Below, piece after piece: positions 258-7,338 of a DNA stretch of 29,780 nt. The stretch's first letter is position 1, and each line of letters begins with the position of its first letter. This stretch comes from an uncultured archaeon (lineage in GTDB: Archaea > Asgardarchaeota > Thorarchaeia > Thorarchaeales > Thorarchaeaceae), in contig CAZSWP010000019.1 in the NCBI GenBank assembly GCA_964610875.1, positions 1 through 29,780 of the forward strand, read 5' to 3'. Under the pieces are notes generated by a model that was not told the DNA's origin, ran no database searches, and worked only from the letters and a program-made list of their open reading frames with translations. The position numbers were made by a program, and so were the translations under genes.

Positions 258-1322
258 TCACATCTCATAGAAGTACTTCCCTTTCGAGTAAATCACTTCA
301 TCACCAGAAGTGACTTCTCCTTCATGCATCTTTTTGATCATATCAACATGAACTGCACTTTCATTTACACCGTTACAATCTTTGTATGCTCGTCCAAGTG
401 CACAATGAATGGTATCGCCAATCTTCTCATCGAAAAGCATATTGAGTGTGTACTTTTTGATTCCACGATTGGTACCTATTGCCATTTCACCTAATCTTCT
501 AGAACCGTCATCGATCTCTAGAATGCTCTTTAGCGTTTCCTGATTTTTCTCAGCGGAGTAATCAATAACTTCTCCTTTTTCGAATGTCAATCTTACACCG
601 TCAATGACCTTTCCCTGCTGCAGAAAAGGTATGTCAAAGTATATCTTTCCTTCAACCGTGTCTTCAACAGGAGCAGTAAATACTTCGCCACTAGGCATGT
701 TGTGCTTGCCATCAGATGCAATCCAGATTCTACCCTCAGTACTGGCATAAAGATCAGTTTCAAGTCCAGTGAAGCGTACATCTGAATGCCTTTCCAGACG
801 TTCTTTCATCTGATACATCAATTTGCTTTCTTCTTTCCAGTCAATGAGCATCGCACTATATGCAAAGTCTTCGTATTCTTCTAGACTCATATTGGCCTGC
901 TGAGCTAAAGTGACACATGGATGGACAGTTAAGCACCATCGTTTTGACAACCTGATGCTTTGGATTTCTTGATTTGTTTTATTGTTCAACATAATGTGAT
1001 CTGAATCGACATTAGCCATTGCCATTATGTTCATTGGTGCTCTAATTGCGATATATACGTCAGTCTTTTCAACGAGTGATTTGACATGCTCAGGGACCAC
1101 TTTCAGTGTGTCGTCATTTGCACCTTCAAAAAAGGCTCTAGCAACCTCTTCGCTCTGCATTAGGTTTACAACTCGTCCACCTGCTCTGGCAACTTCGCGA
1201 TTCAACGCTATCATGAAATCATGTGCCATGGGACTGCCAACAATTGTAACCATATCACCAGGTTTAACTTCTGTACTCCAGTTAACAACTACTTTTGCAT
1301 GTTGTTTTACTCGTTCATCCAT
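258..1322 (-). CDS. Aminopeptidase, peptidase family M29 (AmpS/AmpT/PepS-like)
   Basis: M29 motifs NMPSGEVFTAP, RLGEMAIG, LFDEK, TIHCALGRAY, SAVHVD. Start placed at MDERVK (ATG 1322); a TATA-like ATTTATAC lies on the minus strand at about 1357-1364. Confidence 0.93.
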   Translation of the reverse strand: MDERVKQHAKVVVNWSTEVKPGDMVTIVGSPMAHDFMIALNREVARAGGRVVNLMQSEEVARAFFEGANDDTLKVVPEHVKSLVEKTDVYIAIRAPMNIMAMANVDSDHIMLNNKTNQEIQSIRLSKRWCLTVHPCVTLAQQANMSLEEYEDFAYSAMLIDWKEESKLMYQMKERLERHSDVRFTGLETDLYASTEGRIWIASDGKHNMPSGEVFTAPVEDTVEGKIYFDIPFLQQGKVIDGVRLTFEKGEVIDYSAEKNQETLKSILEIDDGSRRLGEMAIGTNRGIKKYTLNMLFDEKIGDTIHCALGRAYKDCNGVNESAVHVDMIKKMHEGEVTSGDEVIYSKGKYFYEM

Positions 1323-1398
1323 TTCGCAGTTCCTCATCATCTGTGGCTTTTTTGGTAGTATAAATGGGTACCTGTCTAATCAATAAGAATGGGTTTTT

Positions 1399-1761
1399 TT
1401 GATGATTGTCAATTCTTTGAAAACAAGAAAACGGGGATCAATTTCGTACAAACCAGTGTTACCAAAACATGTCTTCCAAGAGATTGGAGTCGAGAACTGG
1501 AATACTTGGCAACCTAATCCTCCGACCGAGGCTATGGTTACTTGTGGTCCATTCAATGTGTCCGAGTATATAGCTGGCGAGTTCACTGAACTTACATACA
1601 ATCCAAACTACTACTATGGTCTTCCACATGATACCACAACTGGCGGTCCTACAACTGGTCCCACTGATGGTCCTGACTTAACACTAACAATCATTGCTGG
1701 TGCAGTTGGTGCTGCTGTGGTTATCCTTGTTGGTGGTTATGTCCTGCTTCGTCAGAAGTAA
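1399..1761 (+). pseudogene. Orphan C-terminal fragment of a peptide ABC-type (family 5-like) solute-binding/surface protein with Thr/Pro linker and C-terminal membrane anchor
   Basis: PVLPKHVF...WN...VTCGPF.VSEY.AGEF.EL.YNPNYY resembles the SBP family 5 'ILPKH...GTGPF...N.NY' segment, followed by a TTTGGPTTGPTDGPD linker, a TM helix and an RQK tail. There is no signal peptide and no room for the usual >500 aa, because the divergent gene starts at 1322. Confidence 0.7.
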
Positions 1762-1774
1762 TCAATAATGCAAT

Positions 1775-1805
1775 GGGGACTTCGTCCCCTTGCCTCTTCT
1801 TTTTT
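1775..1805 (+). terminator. Hairpin plus T-rich tract terminator
   Basis: GGGGAC-TTC-GTCCCC (1775-1789) followed by TGCCTCTTCTTTTTT, 13 nt after the stop at 1761. Confidence 0.7.
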
Positions 1806-1901
1806 CTTCAACTCAACAATTGCACTAAATTTTCCTTTTGTCACTACGAGCGCTTTAATAGTATGTATTGCATTAGAAATAACTCGGTTGGGATAGAGCG
1901 T

Positions 1902-3182
1902 TTGTCTGCAGCAATAATTGTACTTACCATATTCATAGGCACACTAATTGTAATCATGTCTGAGAGGATAGATGAAACTGCTACTGCACTCTTTGGCATG
2001 TCCTTAGCAGGCGTTGTACTCTATGTATATGAGGGCATATCATTTGAATCGTTTATCGGTCTGATCCAATGGGATTCAATACTCTTCATTGCTGCTATGT
2101 TGATTGTTGTTGCAGTTGCCGCGTCATCAGGTATGTTTCAGTATATCGCTCTGGTCTTAGTTAAGAGAACAGGTGATAATCCAAGAAAGATGTATCTAGT
2201 ATTCATGGGATTTGTATTTATCATCTCTCTCTTTTTGGACCCTTTACCCACAATGCTTGTCATGGGTAGCTTCACCGTTGAAGTTTGTAGAGCTTTGGAA
2301 ATTAGAGTTAAACCATTTCTAGTTTCTGAAGTAATAGTTTGTAATTTCGCATCACTTCCCACTATCGTTGGTTCAGTACCCAACCTAGTAATAGCCGTTC
2401 TGACCGAAATTGACGCAGGATTGCTATTCATTACCCTCTTTCCTTTGTCTGTACTCCTCCTATTTATCACGATTCCAATACTTCTGCGAATATTCAAGGA
2501 AGATTTTGATGCATGTGTTGATAGCGACACAAATCTTTTATTTCTCATTCAACCAAGAATTATGATTCGTTCTCGACATGACTTCTACCTCTCGGTTATA
2601 GCCATGATTATTCTAATTAGTGGATTCACTGCGAGTCCTCAACTTGGAATCGAGGTCAGTATGGTCGCATTAGCAGTTGCATCTGGTATGTTAGTATTCT
2701 CACAGAAGAGGGCAAAAGAGCTAATCCGACAGTTATCATGGGATATAATTTTCTTTCTAATTGGTTTATTCGGGCTCATTGTTGCATTAACTGAAACAGG
2801 GTTAGTTGATATGCTAGCGGGAGGTCTATCTGTTATCACAGGTGGAAATATCTTCATAGCGATTTTCTTTCTGATATGGATTCCTGGACTTGCATTGTCT
2901 GTGATAGATAATATTCCTGTTGCAGCTGTCTTGTCCCCACTTGCAATAGAATTCTCTAACTTGAACAGAATTGTCCCCTTAACGCTTGTTATTGGCGCTA
3001 ATGTTGGTGGCTATGCGATTCCTTTTGGTGATGCGCCAAATATGATCGCAGCAAGCCTGTCTGCAGAAAACGGCGAACCACTCTCATTCATTGAGTTTAC
3101 GAAAATCATTCTTCCAATAGCCATTCTCCATTTAGTAATTTCAACCGTGTATTCATTCATTGTTGCGATTCTCTTTGCATAG
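1902..3182 (+). CDS. ArsB/NhaD/SLC13-type ion/anion permease (P-permease/CitMHS-like)
   Basis: About 11-12 TM segments; repeat motifs TIVGSVPNLVIA / IPFGDAPNMIAA and SVIDNIPVAA. The N-terminal 43 aa of the ORF track overlap the upstream terminator, so the in-frame TTG at 1902 is preferred. Confidence 0.85.
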   Translation: MSAAIIVLTIFIGTLIVIMSERIDETATALFGMSLAGVVLYVYEGISFESFIGLIQWDSILFIAAMLIVVAVAASSGMFQYIALVLVKRTGDNPRKMYLVFMGFVFIISLFLDPLPTMLVMGSFTVEVCRALEIRVKPFLVSEVIVCNFASLPTIVGSVPNLVIAVLTEIDAGLLFITLFPLSVLLLFITIPILLRIFKEDFDACVDSDTNLLFLIQPRIMIRSRHDFYLSVIAMIILISGFTASPQLGIEVSMVALAVASGMLVFSQKRAKELIRQLSWDIIFFLIGLFGLIVALTETGLVDMLAGGLSVITGGNIFIAIFFLIWIPGLALSVIDNIPVAAVLSPLAIEFSNLNRIVPLTLVIGANVGGYAIPFGDAPNMIAASLSAENGEPLSFIEFTKIILPIAILHLVISTVYSFIVAILFA

Positions 3183-3288
3183 CATGTCCAAGTGTTGAAA
3201 GACATAATTAGATTGTTGGAACTGACTTGAATCTCGCCTTAATAGGTCAAAAGATAATAGGTTTCACGTCTAACATTTTCTTAGAGAT

Positions 3289-3852
3289 GTGGTGCATTTG
3301 GAGAAGAGCAAGAGCAATTACATTCTTTCCATAATCATATGCATTTCTGCAGCGATGTTCTATATTATTCCAGTTTTTGGGATTTTTGGTTATGCAATTC
3401 TTGCCATTCGATTATTGTATGTTCCACTACTTGTTTGGGCGATTGTAAATATTCTCGCCTATAGTGTGGGAGGAACACATTGGCATATCCCTATCGTTCA
3501 ATCTCGAGGTAATTATACATATTCGGTAAAAAAAGACCCGTCGTTCATCTATAGGTCTTTCAAATATTCTTTCAATAACGAGGAATATGTTATTGGTGGT
3601 TTTCCAGAACAGACTGTTGGGGATGTTCTAAGAGGGAATTGGCCATTCAAAAAGATTAAGAAAAATGATGATTGGATGGTGAAGGATGATAGAGGAAATG
3701 TAGTAACAGAACAACTATTCTCTAAATATGATGGGATTATTTTTGTTGAACTATCTGAACCTCTATACTTGGAAAGGGCAGAAGTTGGAATAGATGAATC
3801 ATCAAAGGAGGAATATTCTGATATGACAATAGGTGTAGAATTCTACGACTAG
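3289..3852 (+). CDS. Hypothetical membrane protein, paralog A (2 TM + putative beta-grasp domain + acidic GVEFYD tail)
   Basis: N-terminal hydrophobic helices. The soluble domain aligns without gaps to the next ORF, and the protein ends EEYSDMTIGVEFYD. Exact start (GTG) uncertain. Confidence 0.8.
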   Translation: MVHLEKSKSNYILSIIICISAAMFYIIPVFGIFGYAILAIRLLYVPLLVWAIVNILAYSVGGTHWHIPIVQSRGNYTYSVKKDPSFIYRSFKYSFNNEEYVIGGFPEQTVGDVLRGNWPFKKIKKNDDWMVKDDRGNVVTEQLFSKYDGIIFVELSEPLYLERAEVGIDESSKEEYSDMTIGVEFYD

Positions 3853-3864
3853 AGAAGTTATGAT

Positions 3865-4413
3865 ATGAGTACTAGTTTAAAACCATGTGCTTCTTGTGTA
3901 ATTTTCCTTTTCGCCATGGTCGTTGTCTGGTACTTTTCACTTATCCTTTTTGAAATCAATATTGCACAATCTGCATTGTTCTGGTTTCTTCCTTTTTTGG
4001 TTTTTATTCTAGTAACATTGCAACTTCTGGCATCATCTGAGGGCGAACGAACTAGACGTCTCTTCAAACGTTATGCTGCTGCAATACCGAGAGATTCAAC
4101 CTCAGTGCAACGTGTAATTAGAAATCCGTATTCAAAGGAAGAGATAGTAATTACCGGTTCATCTGAGATCACTTTTCGTGAAGCCTTAATTAGCGATTGG
4201 AGATTCGATGAAATTTCAAAACGTGATCGATGGTATATAGTAGACGATCAGAAAAACGATATCTCTGAAAACACTCTTGAATCATACCATAGAATCGCAG
4301 AAATCATGATAGCGCAAAAACCTGTTGAAACCTATAGTGAGTATGAAGAGAAAGGAGAAGACACACTAGAAGAATATTCGAGTGTTGATGAAGGTGTTGA
4401 GTTCTACGATTAG
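3865..4413 (+). CDS. Hypothetical membrane protein, paralog B (2 TM + putative beta-grasp domain + acidic GVEFYD tail)
   Basis: 12 nt downstream of paralog A, same architecture, ends EEYSSVDEGVEFYD. Confidence 0.8.
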   Translation: MSTSLKPCASCVIFLFAMVVVWYFSLILFEINIAQSALFWFLPFLVFILVTLQLLASSEGERTRRLFKRYAAAIPRDSTSVQRVIRNPYSKEEIVITGSSEITFREALISDWRFDEISKRDRWYIVDDQKNDISENTLESYHRIAEIMIAQKPVETYSEYEEKGEDTLEEYSSVDEGVEFYD

Positions 4414-4481
4414 ATGTCCTCATTACTTGAATGAGAAACCATAATTGGTTCCAGTTCTCTAAATCAGAGTTGGTATTAAAT

Positions 4482-4955
4482 ATGATGAAAATCAATGAGA
4501 TTTTGGTGAAAGGACTCACGGATCAATTCGCACATGTTGCTCCAAAAAAGGCATTGAAAGGTTTGACAGCAGAACTTGCACGCAAAAAACCCAATGGCAT
4601 TGTTCATTCCTGCTGGGAGCAATTACATCATATTGTGATTTGGCAGGACCCATTGATTGAAGCACTTAAGGGAAATGAAATTGATTGGGACTCTGCTCAG
4701 CAAAACGAATGGCCATCAGATGAAATTATGAAAGATGCCGCTGAATGGGAAAATCTTGTTTCTGGGTTCTTTGATGGTTTAGAAGAAACAAAGAGTATTG
4801 TCAAGGATTTAGATTTGAGTGTGAAAATTCCTGCATGGCCAAAACAATCAATGGGATACGCTGCAATGATGCTTGTAATTCACAACGCATATCATATAGG
4901 TCAGATTGTTACAACAAGAATGGCTCTTGATGCTTGGCCTCCATCTGACGATTGA
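4482..4955 (+). CDS. DinB/YfiT-like four-helix metalloprotein
   Basis: HSCWEQLHHIVIWQ and HNAYHIGQI His motifs typical of the DinB superfamily. Start MMKINE at 4482 preferred. Confidence 0.85.
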   Translation: MMKINEILVKGLTDQFAHVAPKKALKGLTAELARKKPNGIVHSCWEQLHHIVIWQDPLIEALKGNEIDWDSAQQNEWPSDEIMKDAAEWENLVSGFFDGLEETKSIVKDLDLSVKIPAWPKQSMGYAAMMLVIHNAYHIGQIVTTRMALDAWPPSDD

Positions 4956-4956
4956 A

Positions 4957-7338
4957 TCAATTGCGTTCGACTAACTCAACTTTCACCAGAACTGAATTGA
5001 AGCCTGGTGTATGACCAAATGCAGTATGCTTGTCATCCGTTAGTAGATTCACATTTCCATCTCTTGTCCACCAGCCATCTGATGCCCATACTACTCTCGG
5101 ATCGAGCTTATCGGTCAATTCCACATGCATTCTATCAATTGCCCCTCTTTTTGATTCAACCCGAACAATATCTCCATTAAGTAGACACAATTCTTCTGCA
5201 GTTGTCGGATGCATTCTAAGGAATGATCTTTCTTCTTCTATAGAATTCATTTCCATTCTTCGAATAGGGTCATTTACTATTTCATAGGGACATACATCTA
5301 TCTGGCACTCTCTACATCCTATACAATTTGATGTGTCCCAAACTGGTACTAAAAGTCCTGTCATTGAATCAGGAATTTCTAGTGGTCTTTCGTCCACCTT
5401 GACTGCAAGGTTACTAATAACTGAACCAAGGGCCTTTCTCATTTTAGAAGCCGATGGATCATCATCTACTATTGAATCATTTATCTCTCTTATATTTGGA
5501 GGTTTCATCTCTATCGCTTCATCGGGACATTCCTTTACACATTTTTGACAAGTGGTACAATGGGAGTAGCTTCTTACAGAACCTCCTACTTCTATTGTAG
5601 TGAATTGGGAGTGTAGTCGTTCTCGCAATCTTCCTGTAATCATTATCAGTGGATATTCTTCATAAACGTCAGGTGTTGATATCGGGCTCTCAAGAGGTTC
5701 CTCAAAGAATGGTAATGGATTATAACCGCCATTTTCCAGTTCTGTTGAATACAGTTCGATCTTTCCTGAGCTGGTCCCGAACTTGTTGTCTTCGAATACA
5801 ATTGATGGACTAGTTGTTCTGATCCCCTCAGGATGCTTTGTTAGCTCTTCAACAGTGATATGACGACACTCCTCTGTATCTAAAGCCATTTTTATGGCAT
5901 CAATCTCCGTTGTTTTGTATTCCTCTCCAAATCCCATTCTATTTGCAATTTCTAACCATATTTCCAATTCATGCCGTGCTTCTCCCAGTGGTTCAACAAG
6001 TCTTGGAGAATATTGAACGATTCGATGAAGTTCGCTATGTACAAGGTTGTGATGTTCAAAGAGTGTCGTTGCAGGTAGAACAATATCACACATTTTAGCT
6101 GTGTCGGTCATCATCTGATCAATACAAATAAGAAATGGTATCTTCTGAAAACATTCACTCACTCTTGTTGTATTTGGCCATTGAGTTATTGGATTTCCAG
6201 CTTGAATTACCAGAACCTTCAATGGAGATTCATCATGGTTGAGTACATATTCTGGAAGATATGTACCAGAAGGAACTACTGGCTTCATCTCTTCAGGAAG
6301 CAACTGTGTCATAGTGATAGCCTCACCATTGAATGGACTATTGTCCGATGAGAGGTATTGAAAGCCTCCTCCTGAGATTCCTATATACCCACAAATGACC
6401 AGTAAACTGTGTACCGCTCTTGCAGACCAAGTTCCATTAGTATAGTGGTTCATTCCTGCAGGTGCCGTCATGATTAGCGCTGGTTCGTGTTTCGCAAACA
6501 TCAATGCGATTCTTTCGATTGTATTTTCATCAACCCACGTTATCTCACTGACAGTCTTAGTATCATATTTTTTGATGGCTTCTGTAAACTCTTCAAAACC
6601 AATCACATGTTTTTGAATGAATTCCTTATTGTAGAGACCCCGTTTTATAATGATATTCGCTAGACCTAATGCAAGAGCACCATCTGTTCCAGGTCTAATT
6701 GTGGTGTAGATATCAGCTATCGCAGCATGAGGAATTTTACGCGGATCGATTACAATCAGTTTTGCACCATTATCAATGGCTTCTCTGATGATTCTCTTTG
6801 TATGTACGCTTGATTCGAATTTGTTCGTTCCCCATATCACAATACATTTCGAGTTGGTCCAATCCTGTAACTCATGCGGAGGAAAAGGACCTACATTGAA
6901 TCTTGCACCTGCGTATGCGCCTTCGAAGCAAATCTCAACTATACCAGGTATTAGTCGGTTTCCGAAATAACTGCAAAATCTTGAAGCATATCGTGGAGCC
7001 ATCCCATCGTTTCCAGAACCGGAATAGATGCCAACAGATTCGACTCCATGTTCTGCTTTGGCTTTTCCCATTCTTTTTGCAATCTCATCTAAAGCTTCAT
7101 CCCATGAGATTCTTTGATGTGAACCATCTGCCTGCTTCTTCATTGGGTAGAGTAATCTGTCCTCTGAGGAATGACGTAAAACATGACCATAGCCTTTGGG
7201 ACAGCATCTACCAAGTGTGTATAGATGGTTTTCATCACCTTCCAGACGAATAATTTTGCCATCCTCAATCTCTACTACAAAGGCACATAAATCTGGACAA
7301 TTCAGCGCACATGCAGAGTAGAATTTTTTTGAAGTCAT
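4957..7338 (-). CDS. Molybdopterin (Mo/W-bisPGD) oxidoreductase catalytic subunit, uncharacterised MopB subfamily, with inserted 2x[4Fe-4S] ferredoxin
   Basis: N-terminal CALNCPDLC...CPKG Fe-S motif; RISWDEALDEIA, WGTN, VIDPR, RPGTDGALALG, TDTAKMCDIVLPA, SSGKIEL; probable Cys ligand (EICFEG); C-terminal domain IV (MHP..A...N.LT). No TAT signal. Confidence 0.92.
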   Translation of the reverse strand: MTSKKFYSACALNCPDLCAFVVEIEDGKIIRLEGDENHLYTLGRCCPKGYGHVLRHSSEDRLLYPMKKQADGSHQRISWDEALDEIAKRMGKAKAEHGVESVGIYSGSGNDGMAPRYASRFCSYFGNRLIPGIVEICFEGAYAGARFNVGPFPPHELQDWTNSKCIVIWGTNKFESSVHTKRIIREAIDNGAKLIVIDPRKIPHAAIADIYTTIRPGTDGALALGLANIIIKRGLYNKEFIQKHVIGFEEFTEAIKKYDTKTVSEITWVDENTIERIALMFAKHEPALIMTAPAGMNHYTNGTWSARAVHSLLVICGYIGISGGGFQYLSSDNSPFNGEAITMTQLLPEEMKPVVPSGTYLPEYVLNHDESPLKVLVIQAGNPITQWPNTTRVSECFQKIPFLICIDQMMTDTAKMCDIVLPATTLFEHHNLVHSELHRIVQYSPRLVEPLGEARHELEIWLEIANRMGFGEEYKTTEIDAIKMALDTEECRHITVEELTKHPEGIRTTSPSIVFEDNKFGTSSGKIELYSTELENGGYNPLPFFEEPLESPISTPDVYEEYPLIMITGRLRERLHSQFTTIEVGGSVRSYSHCTTCQKCVKECPDEAIEMKPPNIREINDSIVDDDPSASKMRKALGSVISNLAVKVDERPLEIPDSMTGLLVPVWDTSNCIGCRECQIDVCPYEIVNDPIRRMEMNSIEEERSFLRMHPTTAEELCLLNGDIVRVESKRGAIDRMHVELTDKLDPRVVWASDGWWTRDGNVNLLTDDKHTAFGHTPGFNSVLVKVELVERN

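Follow-up and report, generated by a model that had tools for sequence, protein, structure and literature searches.

Why do two neighboring genes whose products share less than one-third of their residues end in the same peptide? The question is raised by genes A and B of an uncultured archaeon of the family Thorarchaeaceae (Asgardarchaeota). They lie in tandem on the forward strand of a 29,780-nucleotide stretch of DNA, referred to here as the window (positions 1 to 29,780 of contig CAZSWP010000019.1, assembly GCA_964610875.1). Gene A (3289..3852) encodes 187 amino acids when read from a GTG codon, and gene B (3865..4413) encodes 182 amino acids. Each product is predicted to consist of a transmembrane (TM) hairpin, a ubiquitin-like (UBL) domain, a linker, and a C-terminal tail. 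We show that the tail is under purifying selection at the level of the peptide, and we conclude that it is very probably a C-terminal docking motif. No closer relatives of eukaryotes are known than the Asgard archaea, and their protein quality control and membrane machinery bear on the origin of the eukaryotic systems.

The shared tail is selected as a peptide

The tails are EEYSDMTIGVEFYD in A (3808..3849, forward strand; stop codon at 3850-3852) and EEYSSVDEGVEFYD in B (4369..4410, forward strand; stop codon at 4411-4413), and the C-terminus common to both is EEYS-x4-GVEFYD. The last six codons and the stop codon are GGT GTA GAA TTC TAC GAC TAG in A (3832-3852) and GGT GTT GAG TTC TAC GAT TAG in B (4393-4413). 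The three differences between the six codons are all synonymous changes at third positions (3/3). This common ending and its three silent changes had been pointed out in the original prediction, and both were confirmed in the open reading frames (ORFs) and their codons. The original prediction had further held that selection acts on the peptide and that the DNA was not recently copied, which is upheld by the overall divergence of A and B and by the codon pattern in 23 genes described below.

A and B are 31% identical over 149 amino acids (BLASTP) and, judged by their sequences, are old tandem paralogs. Because the identity is so low, the identical ends are not the product of a recent DNA copy, and agreement at all of the identical end residues (6/6 plus 4/4) is far above the expectation of ~0.31^10. 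Apart from A and B, no ORF of the complete 3.75 Mb assembly ends in G-[VILA]-[ED]-F-[YF]-[DE].

The family to which A and B belong was found by an exhaustive profile search of 1.84 billion proteins, which gave 125 clusters at 50% identity; a word-indexed homolog search with B matched only B itself. Relatives were also recovered when related genomes were searched in six frames. The tail is conserved among the orthologs, with 46 of the 125 clusters ending in [FY]-Y-[DEN]. A logo anchored at the C-terminus was counted over the 45 distinct tailed clusters, and the consensus was determined to be [DE]-E-Y-[ST]-x-[IML]-x-x-[GSA]-V-x-[FY]-Y-D-COOH. Counting back from the chain end, position -1 is Asp in 43/45 clusters, -2 is Tyr in 45/45, and -3 is aromatic in 45/45 (Tyr in 26/45 and Phe in 19/45). 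Position -4 is Glu, Thr, or Lys, -5 is Val in 43/45, -6 is Gly, Ser, or Ala, and -7 may be any residue. Farther upstream are Asp, His, or Glu at -8, Ile, Met, or Leu at -9 (35/45 with Val included), Ser, Asp, or Thr at -10, and Ser or Thr at -11. Position -12 is Tyr in 26/45 and otherwise Glu or Phe (Tyr or Phe in 29/45), -13 is Glu, and -14 is Asp or Glu, with an acidic residue at -13/-14 in most of the tailed clusters. The tail positions are conserved as strongly as the core residues W112, F114, W123, and N131 of the domain, and identity between members outside of the tail is only 25-45%.

The last three codons (aromatic-Tyr-Asp) were compared in 23 distinct genes. Their first and second positions are almost invariant and the wobble position is free, and the stop codon, which may be TAA, TAG, or TGA, follows the tail directly in 23/23 genes. 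Since the first two positions are fixed while the third varies and all three stop codons are used, selection acts on the peptide, and a DNA- or RNA-level cause of the conservation is ruled out. Both tails do lie 12-17 nucleotides (nt) upstream of the next start codon, as would be expected of an overlapping signal such as the ribosome-binding site of the next gene, but the tail persists at loci whose next gene is a different or a distant one. The divergence of A from B argues in the same way against chance or recent gene conversion. The likelihood that the identity has any of these origins is negligible.

A quick and poorly resolved tree of the family separates 37 tail-less clusters from a group of 64 clusters that holds all 44 tailed members represented in the analysis, together with a few apparent losses. 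In this tree, A and B are found in different subclades of the tailed group, and the tail has therefore apparently been retained from an old duplication onward. In the untailed remainder of the family, the chain stops immediately beyond the final strand of the domain. The genome of the window carries two distant paralogs from the tail-less group of the tree (C39:10462-10980 and C27:48608-49261; loci L003 and L004), and both of them stop directly after the last beta-grasp strand.

The family was detected in 54 of the 76 genomes of the taxonomic family of the window, which is one family of Thorarchaeota, and in 0 of the 224 genomes from 29 other families of the same phylum. Within the taxonomic family, the genera g7, g13, and g14 yielded no tailed member. 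The named records that carry it are all "Candidatus Thorarchaeota archaeon" metagenome-assembled genomes, except for one "uncultured archaeon". No paper describing the family or its tail was found in full-text literature searches that were not specific to the family.

To determine how widely the ending is shared, 86 genomes of the taxonomic family were searched for V-E-[FY]-Y-D followed by a stop codon or TGG, with the reversed pattern as the control. This variant accounts for over half of the tails. The pattern was found in 27 places, compared with 5 for the reversed control. Genes of the family account for 18 of the 27 (17 intact genes and one fragment at a contig end). The places outside of the family are five junk frames of 8-33 amino acids, which is about the control level, and four places where TGG (Trp) rather than a stop codon follows. 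Among these 86 genomes, V-E-[FY]-Y-D before a stop codon is thus private to this UBL family. One 33-codon frame ending in ...EELGVEFYD and a stop codon (L065, G234:C5:134802-134819) lies in a genome with no detectable member of the family and may be what remains of a lost gene or a chance occurrence.

The private nature of the ending speaks against a sorting or client signal of general use, and it fits a dedicated partner or binding to the domain of the family itself. The original prediction had also raised a tyrosine-based sorting signal (YxxPhi) or a phosphorylated Tyr, for which no supporting evidence was obtained. The spacings Y-[ST]-x-[IML] and S-x-x-[DE] are common in the tail and would suit such a signal or a site of Tyr or Ser phosphorylation. 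However, the upstream Tyr that either would use is limited to the 26 clusters noted above and is missing from some tails that are complete in other respects, for example the short HMGVEYYD type, and the invariant part is the extreme C-terminus. A general signal would also be expected in other protein families. A sorting or phosphorylation role is therefore quite improbable. Binding to a PDZ domain, another of the earlier suggestions, is unlikely with Asp as the terminal residue.

A predicted membrane hairpin and ubiquitin-like domain

The structure of B was predicted with AlphaFold2 using an alignment of 21 sequences and then one of 101 sequences, and both gave the same model. Two long helices (residues 9-29 and 33-70/71) are predicted to form the membrane hairpin, which is assigned to residues 9-56 (3889..4032, forward strand), with the second helix running on to approximately residue 70. 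Residues 80-150 (4102..4314, forward strand) constitute a compact domain with a predicted local distance difference test (pLDDT) score of 94-98. The remainder, residues 151-182, has pLDDT values of 55-74 and no secondary structure in the model from either alignment; it begins with an acidic linker of low confidence at residues 151-168 (4315..4368, forward strand; pLDDT 55-68). In A, the hydrophobic hairpin corresponds approximately to residues 12-60 (3322..3468, forward strand), based on the sequence, the family alignment, and a hydropathy scan. The UBL domain of A was placed by alignment to B at approximately residues 86-156 (3544..3756, forward strand).

The start of A is ambiguous within 3289-3357 of the window. 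The public gene call (P0007) begins with the ATG at 3355 and gives 165 amino acids, so that the two hydrophobic segments are joined by hardly any loop. Translation from the GTG at 3289 yields a protein with a Lys-rich N-terminus and a two-helix hairpin, as is found in its relatives.

By its predicted fold, the domain of the family is a ubiquitin-like beta-grasp (beta-beta-alpha-beta-beta(-beta) topology), as the original prediction had proposed. The domain of B superposes on Ufm1, the UBL domain of BAG6, and the Ras-binding domain of RAF with Z-scores of ~8 and root-mean-square deviations of 2.1-2.4 Å over ~70 residues. All of the top Foldseek matches are beta-grasp folds. One of the closest structural matches is Ufm1 in complex with its interacting motif. 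Ubiquitin-like proteins, including TMUB2, are among the matches of a shape search of the Atlas, and an Arabidopsis MUB protein is also among the shape matches. At the level of sequence, a Pfam scan of A and B matched no family, a search of the family profile against the sequences in the PDB gave only transmembrane noise and no link to a solved UBL structure, and a feature search of the ESM Atlas gave no usable match. The family is undescribed, lineage-restricted, and lacking a Pfam model; it would place a UBL fold at the membrane, and it is most strongly conserved in its free C-terminal peptide.

Lys and Arg residues are found at both ends of the hairpin, and B has five of them in the 15 residues that follow the hydrophobic region. 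Because these residues flank the hairpin, the domain and the tail are probably cytoplasmic according to the positive-inside rule. Across the family, the linker that separates the final six residues from the last strand is 17-30 residues long; in A and B it is acidic.

The original prediction had named folding of the tail back onto the domain as one outcome that would count against a docking motif. A tail that completes the beta-grasp or packs on the membrane helices would be consistent with the pLDDT of up to ~74 at its last residues, and some of the tail-less members have a V-E-F-x-[DE]-like end at the last strand itself. The tail is nevertheless without secondary structure in both models, it is set apart from the domain by the variable linker, and at least 37 members of the family fold the same domain without it. 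An integral structural role is therefore highly unlikely.

In architecture, the closest known systems are the eukaryotic membrane proteins TMUB1/2, Herp/Usa1, UBX proteins such as Ubx2/UBXD8, and the prenylated MUBs, in which a hairpin or another anchor keeps a ubiquitin fold on the cytoplasmic side of a membrane. The family differs from these in having no detectable sequence homology to them, in the order of its domains, and in the absence of the R...FPR signature of UBX. To our knowledge, none of these proteins carries the tail described here. UBX domains, such as those of p47 and FAF1, are recognized by a conserved Arg in strand 1 and by Phe-Pro-Arg in the loop that joins strand 3 to strand 4. 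Assignment of the domain as UBX was rejected: R83 provides a conserved Arg in strand 1, but the sequence of the strand 3-4 loop is D-x-R-G-N-D-[IV]. A W-P-F triplet is found in the loop from the helix to strand 3, which is not the position of the UBX Phe-Pro-Arg.

Among the surface loops of the domain, conservation is highest in D-[ED]-R-G-N-D-[IV]-[TS], which connects strands 3 and 4 at residues 127-134 of B. Since UBX domains bear their Cdc48-binding loop at this place, residues 127-134 are a candidate interaction site of the domain.

The family also differs from ubiquitin proper (PF00240), which it does not match. Its domain is internal and is followed by the linker and a tail ending in Asp, not by an exposed Gly-Gly. 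The profiles for ubiquitin (PF00240) and for E2 enzymes (PF00179) gave no significant match in this 95%-complete genome, in agreement with a published account in which true ubiquitin homologues are seemingly absent from Thorarchaeota (bioRxiv 10.1101/2021.08.17.456605).

Candidate partners of the tail

A docking motif is the best reading of the tail because selection acts on the peptide, the tail is predicted to be disordered, its C-terminus is free at the end of a variable tether, and it is probably exposed to the cytoplasm. The tail offers a testable handle on a protein of an uncultured organism, and identification of its partner would assign a function to the family. We favor a family-specific docking peptide with the alpha-ring pocket of the 20S proteasome as the leading candidate partner, and we assign a probability of about 0.35 to this statement as a whole.

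The proteasome is suggested by the hydrophobic-Tyr-X (HbYX) motif, in which the third-last residue is small or hydrophobic and Tyr or Phe is penultimate at the extreme C-terminus (PMC3493965). Peptides of seven residues with this motif suffice for gate opening (PMC3493965). The resemblance to HbYX noted in the original prediction stands, since the last three residues of the tail fit the published definition, with Tyr at -2 and Phe or Tyr at -3 in all 45 clusters at the very end of the chain. By function, the closest analogues would be the HbYX tails of PAN, archaeal Cdc48/AMA, Rpt2/3/5, Blm10/PA200, and Pba1-Pba2/PbaB. The tail shares with these the extreme C-terminus, the invariant penultimate Tyr, and the hydrophobic (here aromatic) third-last residue, and it would likewise hang on a flexible cytoplasmic tether. 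The genome of the window encodes two 20S alpha subunits (alpha-1 on C29 and alpha-2 on C13), PAN, and two Cdc48-like ATPases. The PAN protein (C3:107731-109002) ends in ...GIYC and one Cdc48-like ATPase (C15:28310-30535) ends in ...TYYG, both of which are canonical HbYX endings; the other Cdc48-like ATPase (C83:5107-7200) ends in ...SGYV.

In the mechanism that we envision, the N-terminal TM hairpin would anchor each protein of the family, and the UBL domain, the flexible linker of ~17-30 residues, and the free ...[GSA]-V-x-[FY]-Y-D-COOH end would project on the cytoplasmic side. Most of the tailed members would also present the upstream acidic Y-[ST]-x-[IML] element. The terminal carboxylate, the invariant Tyr at -2, and the aromatic residue at -3 would insert into a pocket of the partner, for which the leading candidate is the inter-subunit site of the 20S alpha ring that accepts HbYX tails. 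Proteasomes might in this way be tethered to the membrane or regulated there, and the pair of A and B would contribute two tails. We are aware of no other archaeal protein that docks to proteasomes from a membrane anchor without being an ATPase, and the family would be the first of this kind if the 20S proteasome is the partner.

Several observations weigh against the proteasome. In known HbYX motifs, the last residue is free and nothing upstream is required. Here Asp is fixed at the chain end, and conservation reaches at least 3-11 more positions upstream; the conservation of Asp at -1, Val at -5, Gly/Ser at -6, and the Yxx[IML] element therefore points to an interface that is larger than that of HbYX or different from it. 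The carrier also differs, being a small membrane-anchored UBL protein rather than an ATPase ring or an assembly chaperone. HbYX-like endings arise readily by chance, since they are found in 44 of the 3646 long ORFs of this genome and in 0.93% of archaeal proteins (PMC11475706). No proteasome, AAA, Cdc48, E1/E2, TPR, or chaperone gene was found among the conserved neighbors of the tailed loci. All genera have a divergent 20S alpha-2 paralog, also those that lack the UBL family, and its distribution therefore lends the proteasome no support. Finally, the restriction of the tail to proteins with this UBL domain fits self-binding equally well. With the proteasome proposed by analogy, its assignment as the partner of the tail is tentative.

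The original prediction had gone on to suggest membrane proteasome adaptors. The family would combine two known kinds of components, membrane proteins with a UBL fold and C-terminal docking tails. Given the resemblance of the tail to HbYX, the idea of a proteasome adaptor is plausible. A fuller version, in which a lineage-specific set of membrane-anchored UBL-fold proteins in Thorarchaeota docks to 20S (or to Cdc48-20S) at the membrane through invariant HbYX-like tails while the UBL domain recruits a second factor, would make the family an archaeal counterpart of the eukaryotic adaptors for membrane- or endoplasmic reticulum-associated degradation. This proposal is a doubtful one.

A different possibility is that the tail binds the UBL domain of the family itself by beta-strand addition, either in cis as an autoinhibitory element or in trans, with A and B or two adjacent copies binding each other, which would give heterodimers or head-to-tail chains at the membrane. 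There is precedent for this type of binding, in that peptides of the LC3-interacting region/Atg8-interacting motif (LIR/AIM), the Ufm1-interacting motif (UFIM), and the SUMO-interacting motif (SIM) bind Atg8, Ufm1, and SUMO by beta-strand addition. The tail resembles these in its acidic run, its aromatic-x-x-aliphatic core, and its predicted disordered region beside a UBL fold. It matches the LIR/AIM core [WFY]-x-x-[LIV] with upstream acidic residues through Y-[ST]-x-[IML], as a pattern match only. The presence of Ufm1 with its interacting motif among the closest structural matches, the private nature of the ending, the frequent occurrence of tailed genes in tandem sets of two or three, and a tail pLDDT of 58-74, which exceeds the expectation for a fully free tail, are all consistent with self-binding. 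The models, however, contain no strand or bridge formed by the tail, even with 101 sequences. The domain columns that distinguish tailed from tail-less members are C108 and position 149, neither of which resembles a peptide-binding site, and no peptide-binding patch is evident. In LIR, UFIM, and SIM systems, the motif is not on the same chain as the UBL fold, and the best-conserved part of the tail, the C-terminal V-x-[FY]-Y-D, is missing from those motifs. Binding of the LIR/SIM type also needs no extreme C-terminus, which with its carboxylate-bearing Asp is the most conserved part of the tail. We consider self-binding to be unlikely.

Three receptors for motifs of this general kind were searched for in the genome and rejected. 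The Atg8 receptor of LIR/AIM motifs (PF02991) was not found in this 95%-complete genome at E <= 1. For FFAT motifs (E-F-F-D-A in an acidic tract), a search of the genome for the MSP/VAP receptor (PF00635) likewise gave no match at E <= 1. The PUB/PUL domains that would recognize a p97-tail-type motif (PF09409 and PF08324) gave only noise at E ~0.5.

Conserved neighbors and possible readers of the terminal Asp

In the window, B is followed after 17 nt by a DinB_2-family gene (4431..4955, forward strand), and a CitMHS-type permease gene (1773..3182, forward strand) lies upstream of A. These genes belong to a conserved syntenic block that consists of an M29 peptidase, the CitMHS permease, one to three UBL genes, DinB_2, and a convergent molybdopterin oxidoreductase. 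The block is found at 258-7338 of the window and at loci L007, L015, L025-L031, and L034, and it is kept across several genera of Thorarchaeota. Within it, the UBL genes evolve much faster than their neighbors (30-45% identity versus 57-77% in the same loci).

DinB_2 is the most persistent neighbor of the tailed genes. In ~10 loci representing several genera, it follows the tailed gene on the same strand at a distance of 8-60 nt, and it stays next to the tailed genes where rearrangement has moved CitMHS. This pairing bears on the possibility that the tail docks to another dedicated soluble partner, one that reads the C-terminal Asp together with the terminal carboxylate. Such a partner could be a two-carboxylate clamp similar to the TPR domains that bind EEVD tails, or it could be DinB_2. 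The nearly invariant terminal Asp and the acidic residues upstream of it would suit a reader of this type. The EEVD tails of Hsp70 and Hsp90, which are bound by the TPR carboxylate clamp, likewise present two carboxylates in a terminal Asp after an acidic disordered tail. They differ, however, at -2 and -3, which are Tyr and Phe/Tyr here rather than the residues of E-E-V, and TPR genes are absent from the conserved neighbors. For DinB_2, adjacency may be inherited rather than functional, given that the whole region with M29, CitMHS, and the molybdopterin oxidoreductase is syntenic. About half of the tailed loci have no adjacent DinB_2, and we know of no DinB-fold protein that serves as a peptide receptor. 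DinB_2 is a weak candidate for the partner of the tail, and a reader of the terminal Asp of either type is somewhat unlikely.

Two irregular copies of the family genes were encountered. In L012 (G007:C110), a family gene is split into two overlapping frames in which TFREACLK is read twice, the result of either a frameshift or an assembly error. The tandem copy at L011:940-1356 (G011:C12) has three in-frame TGA codons and a decayed tail, ...SVEFYGCS, and is likely a pseudogene.

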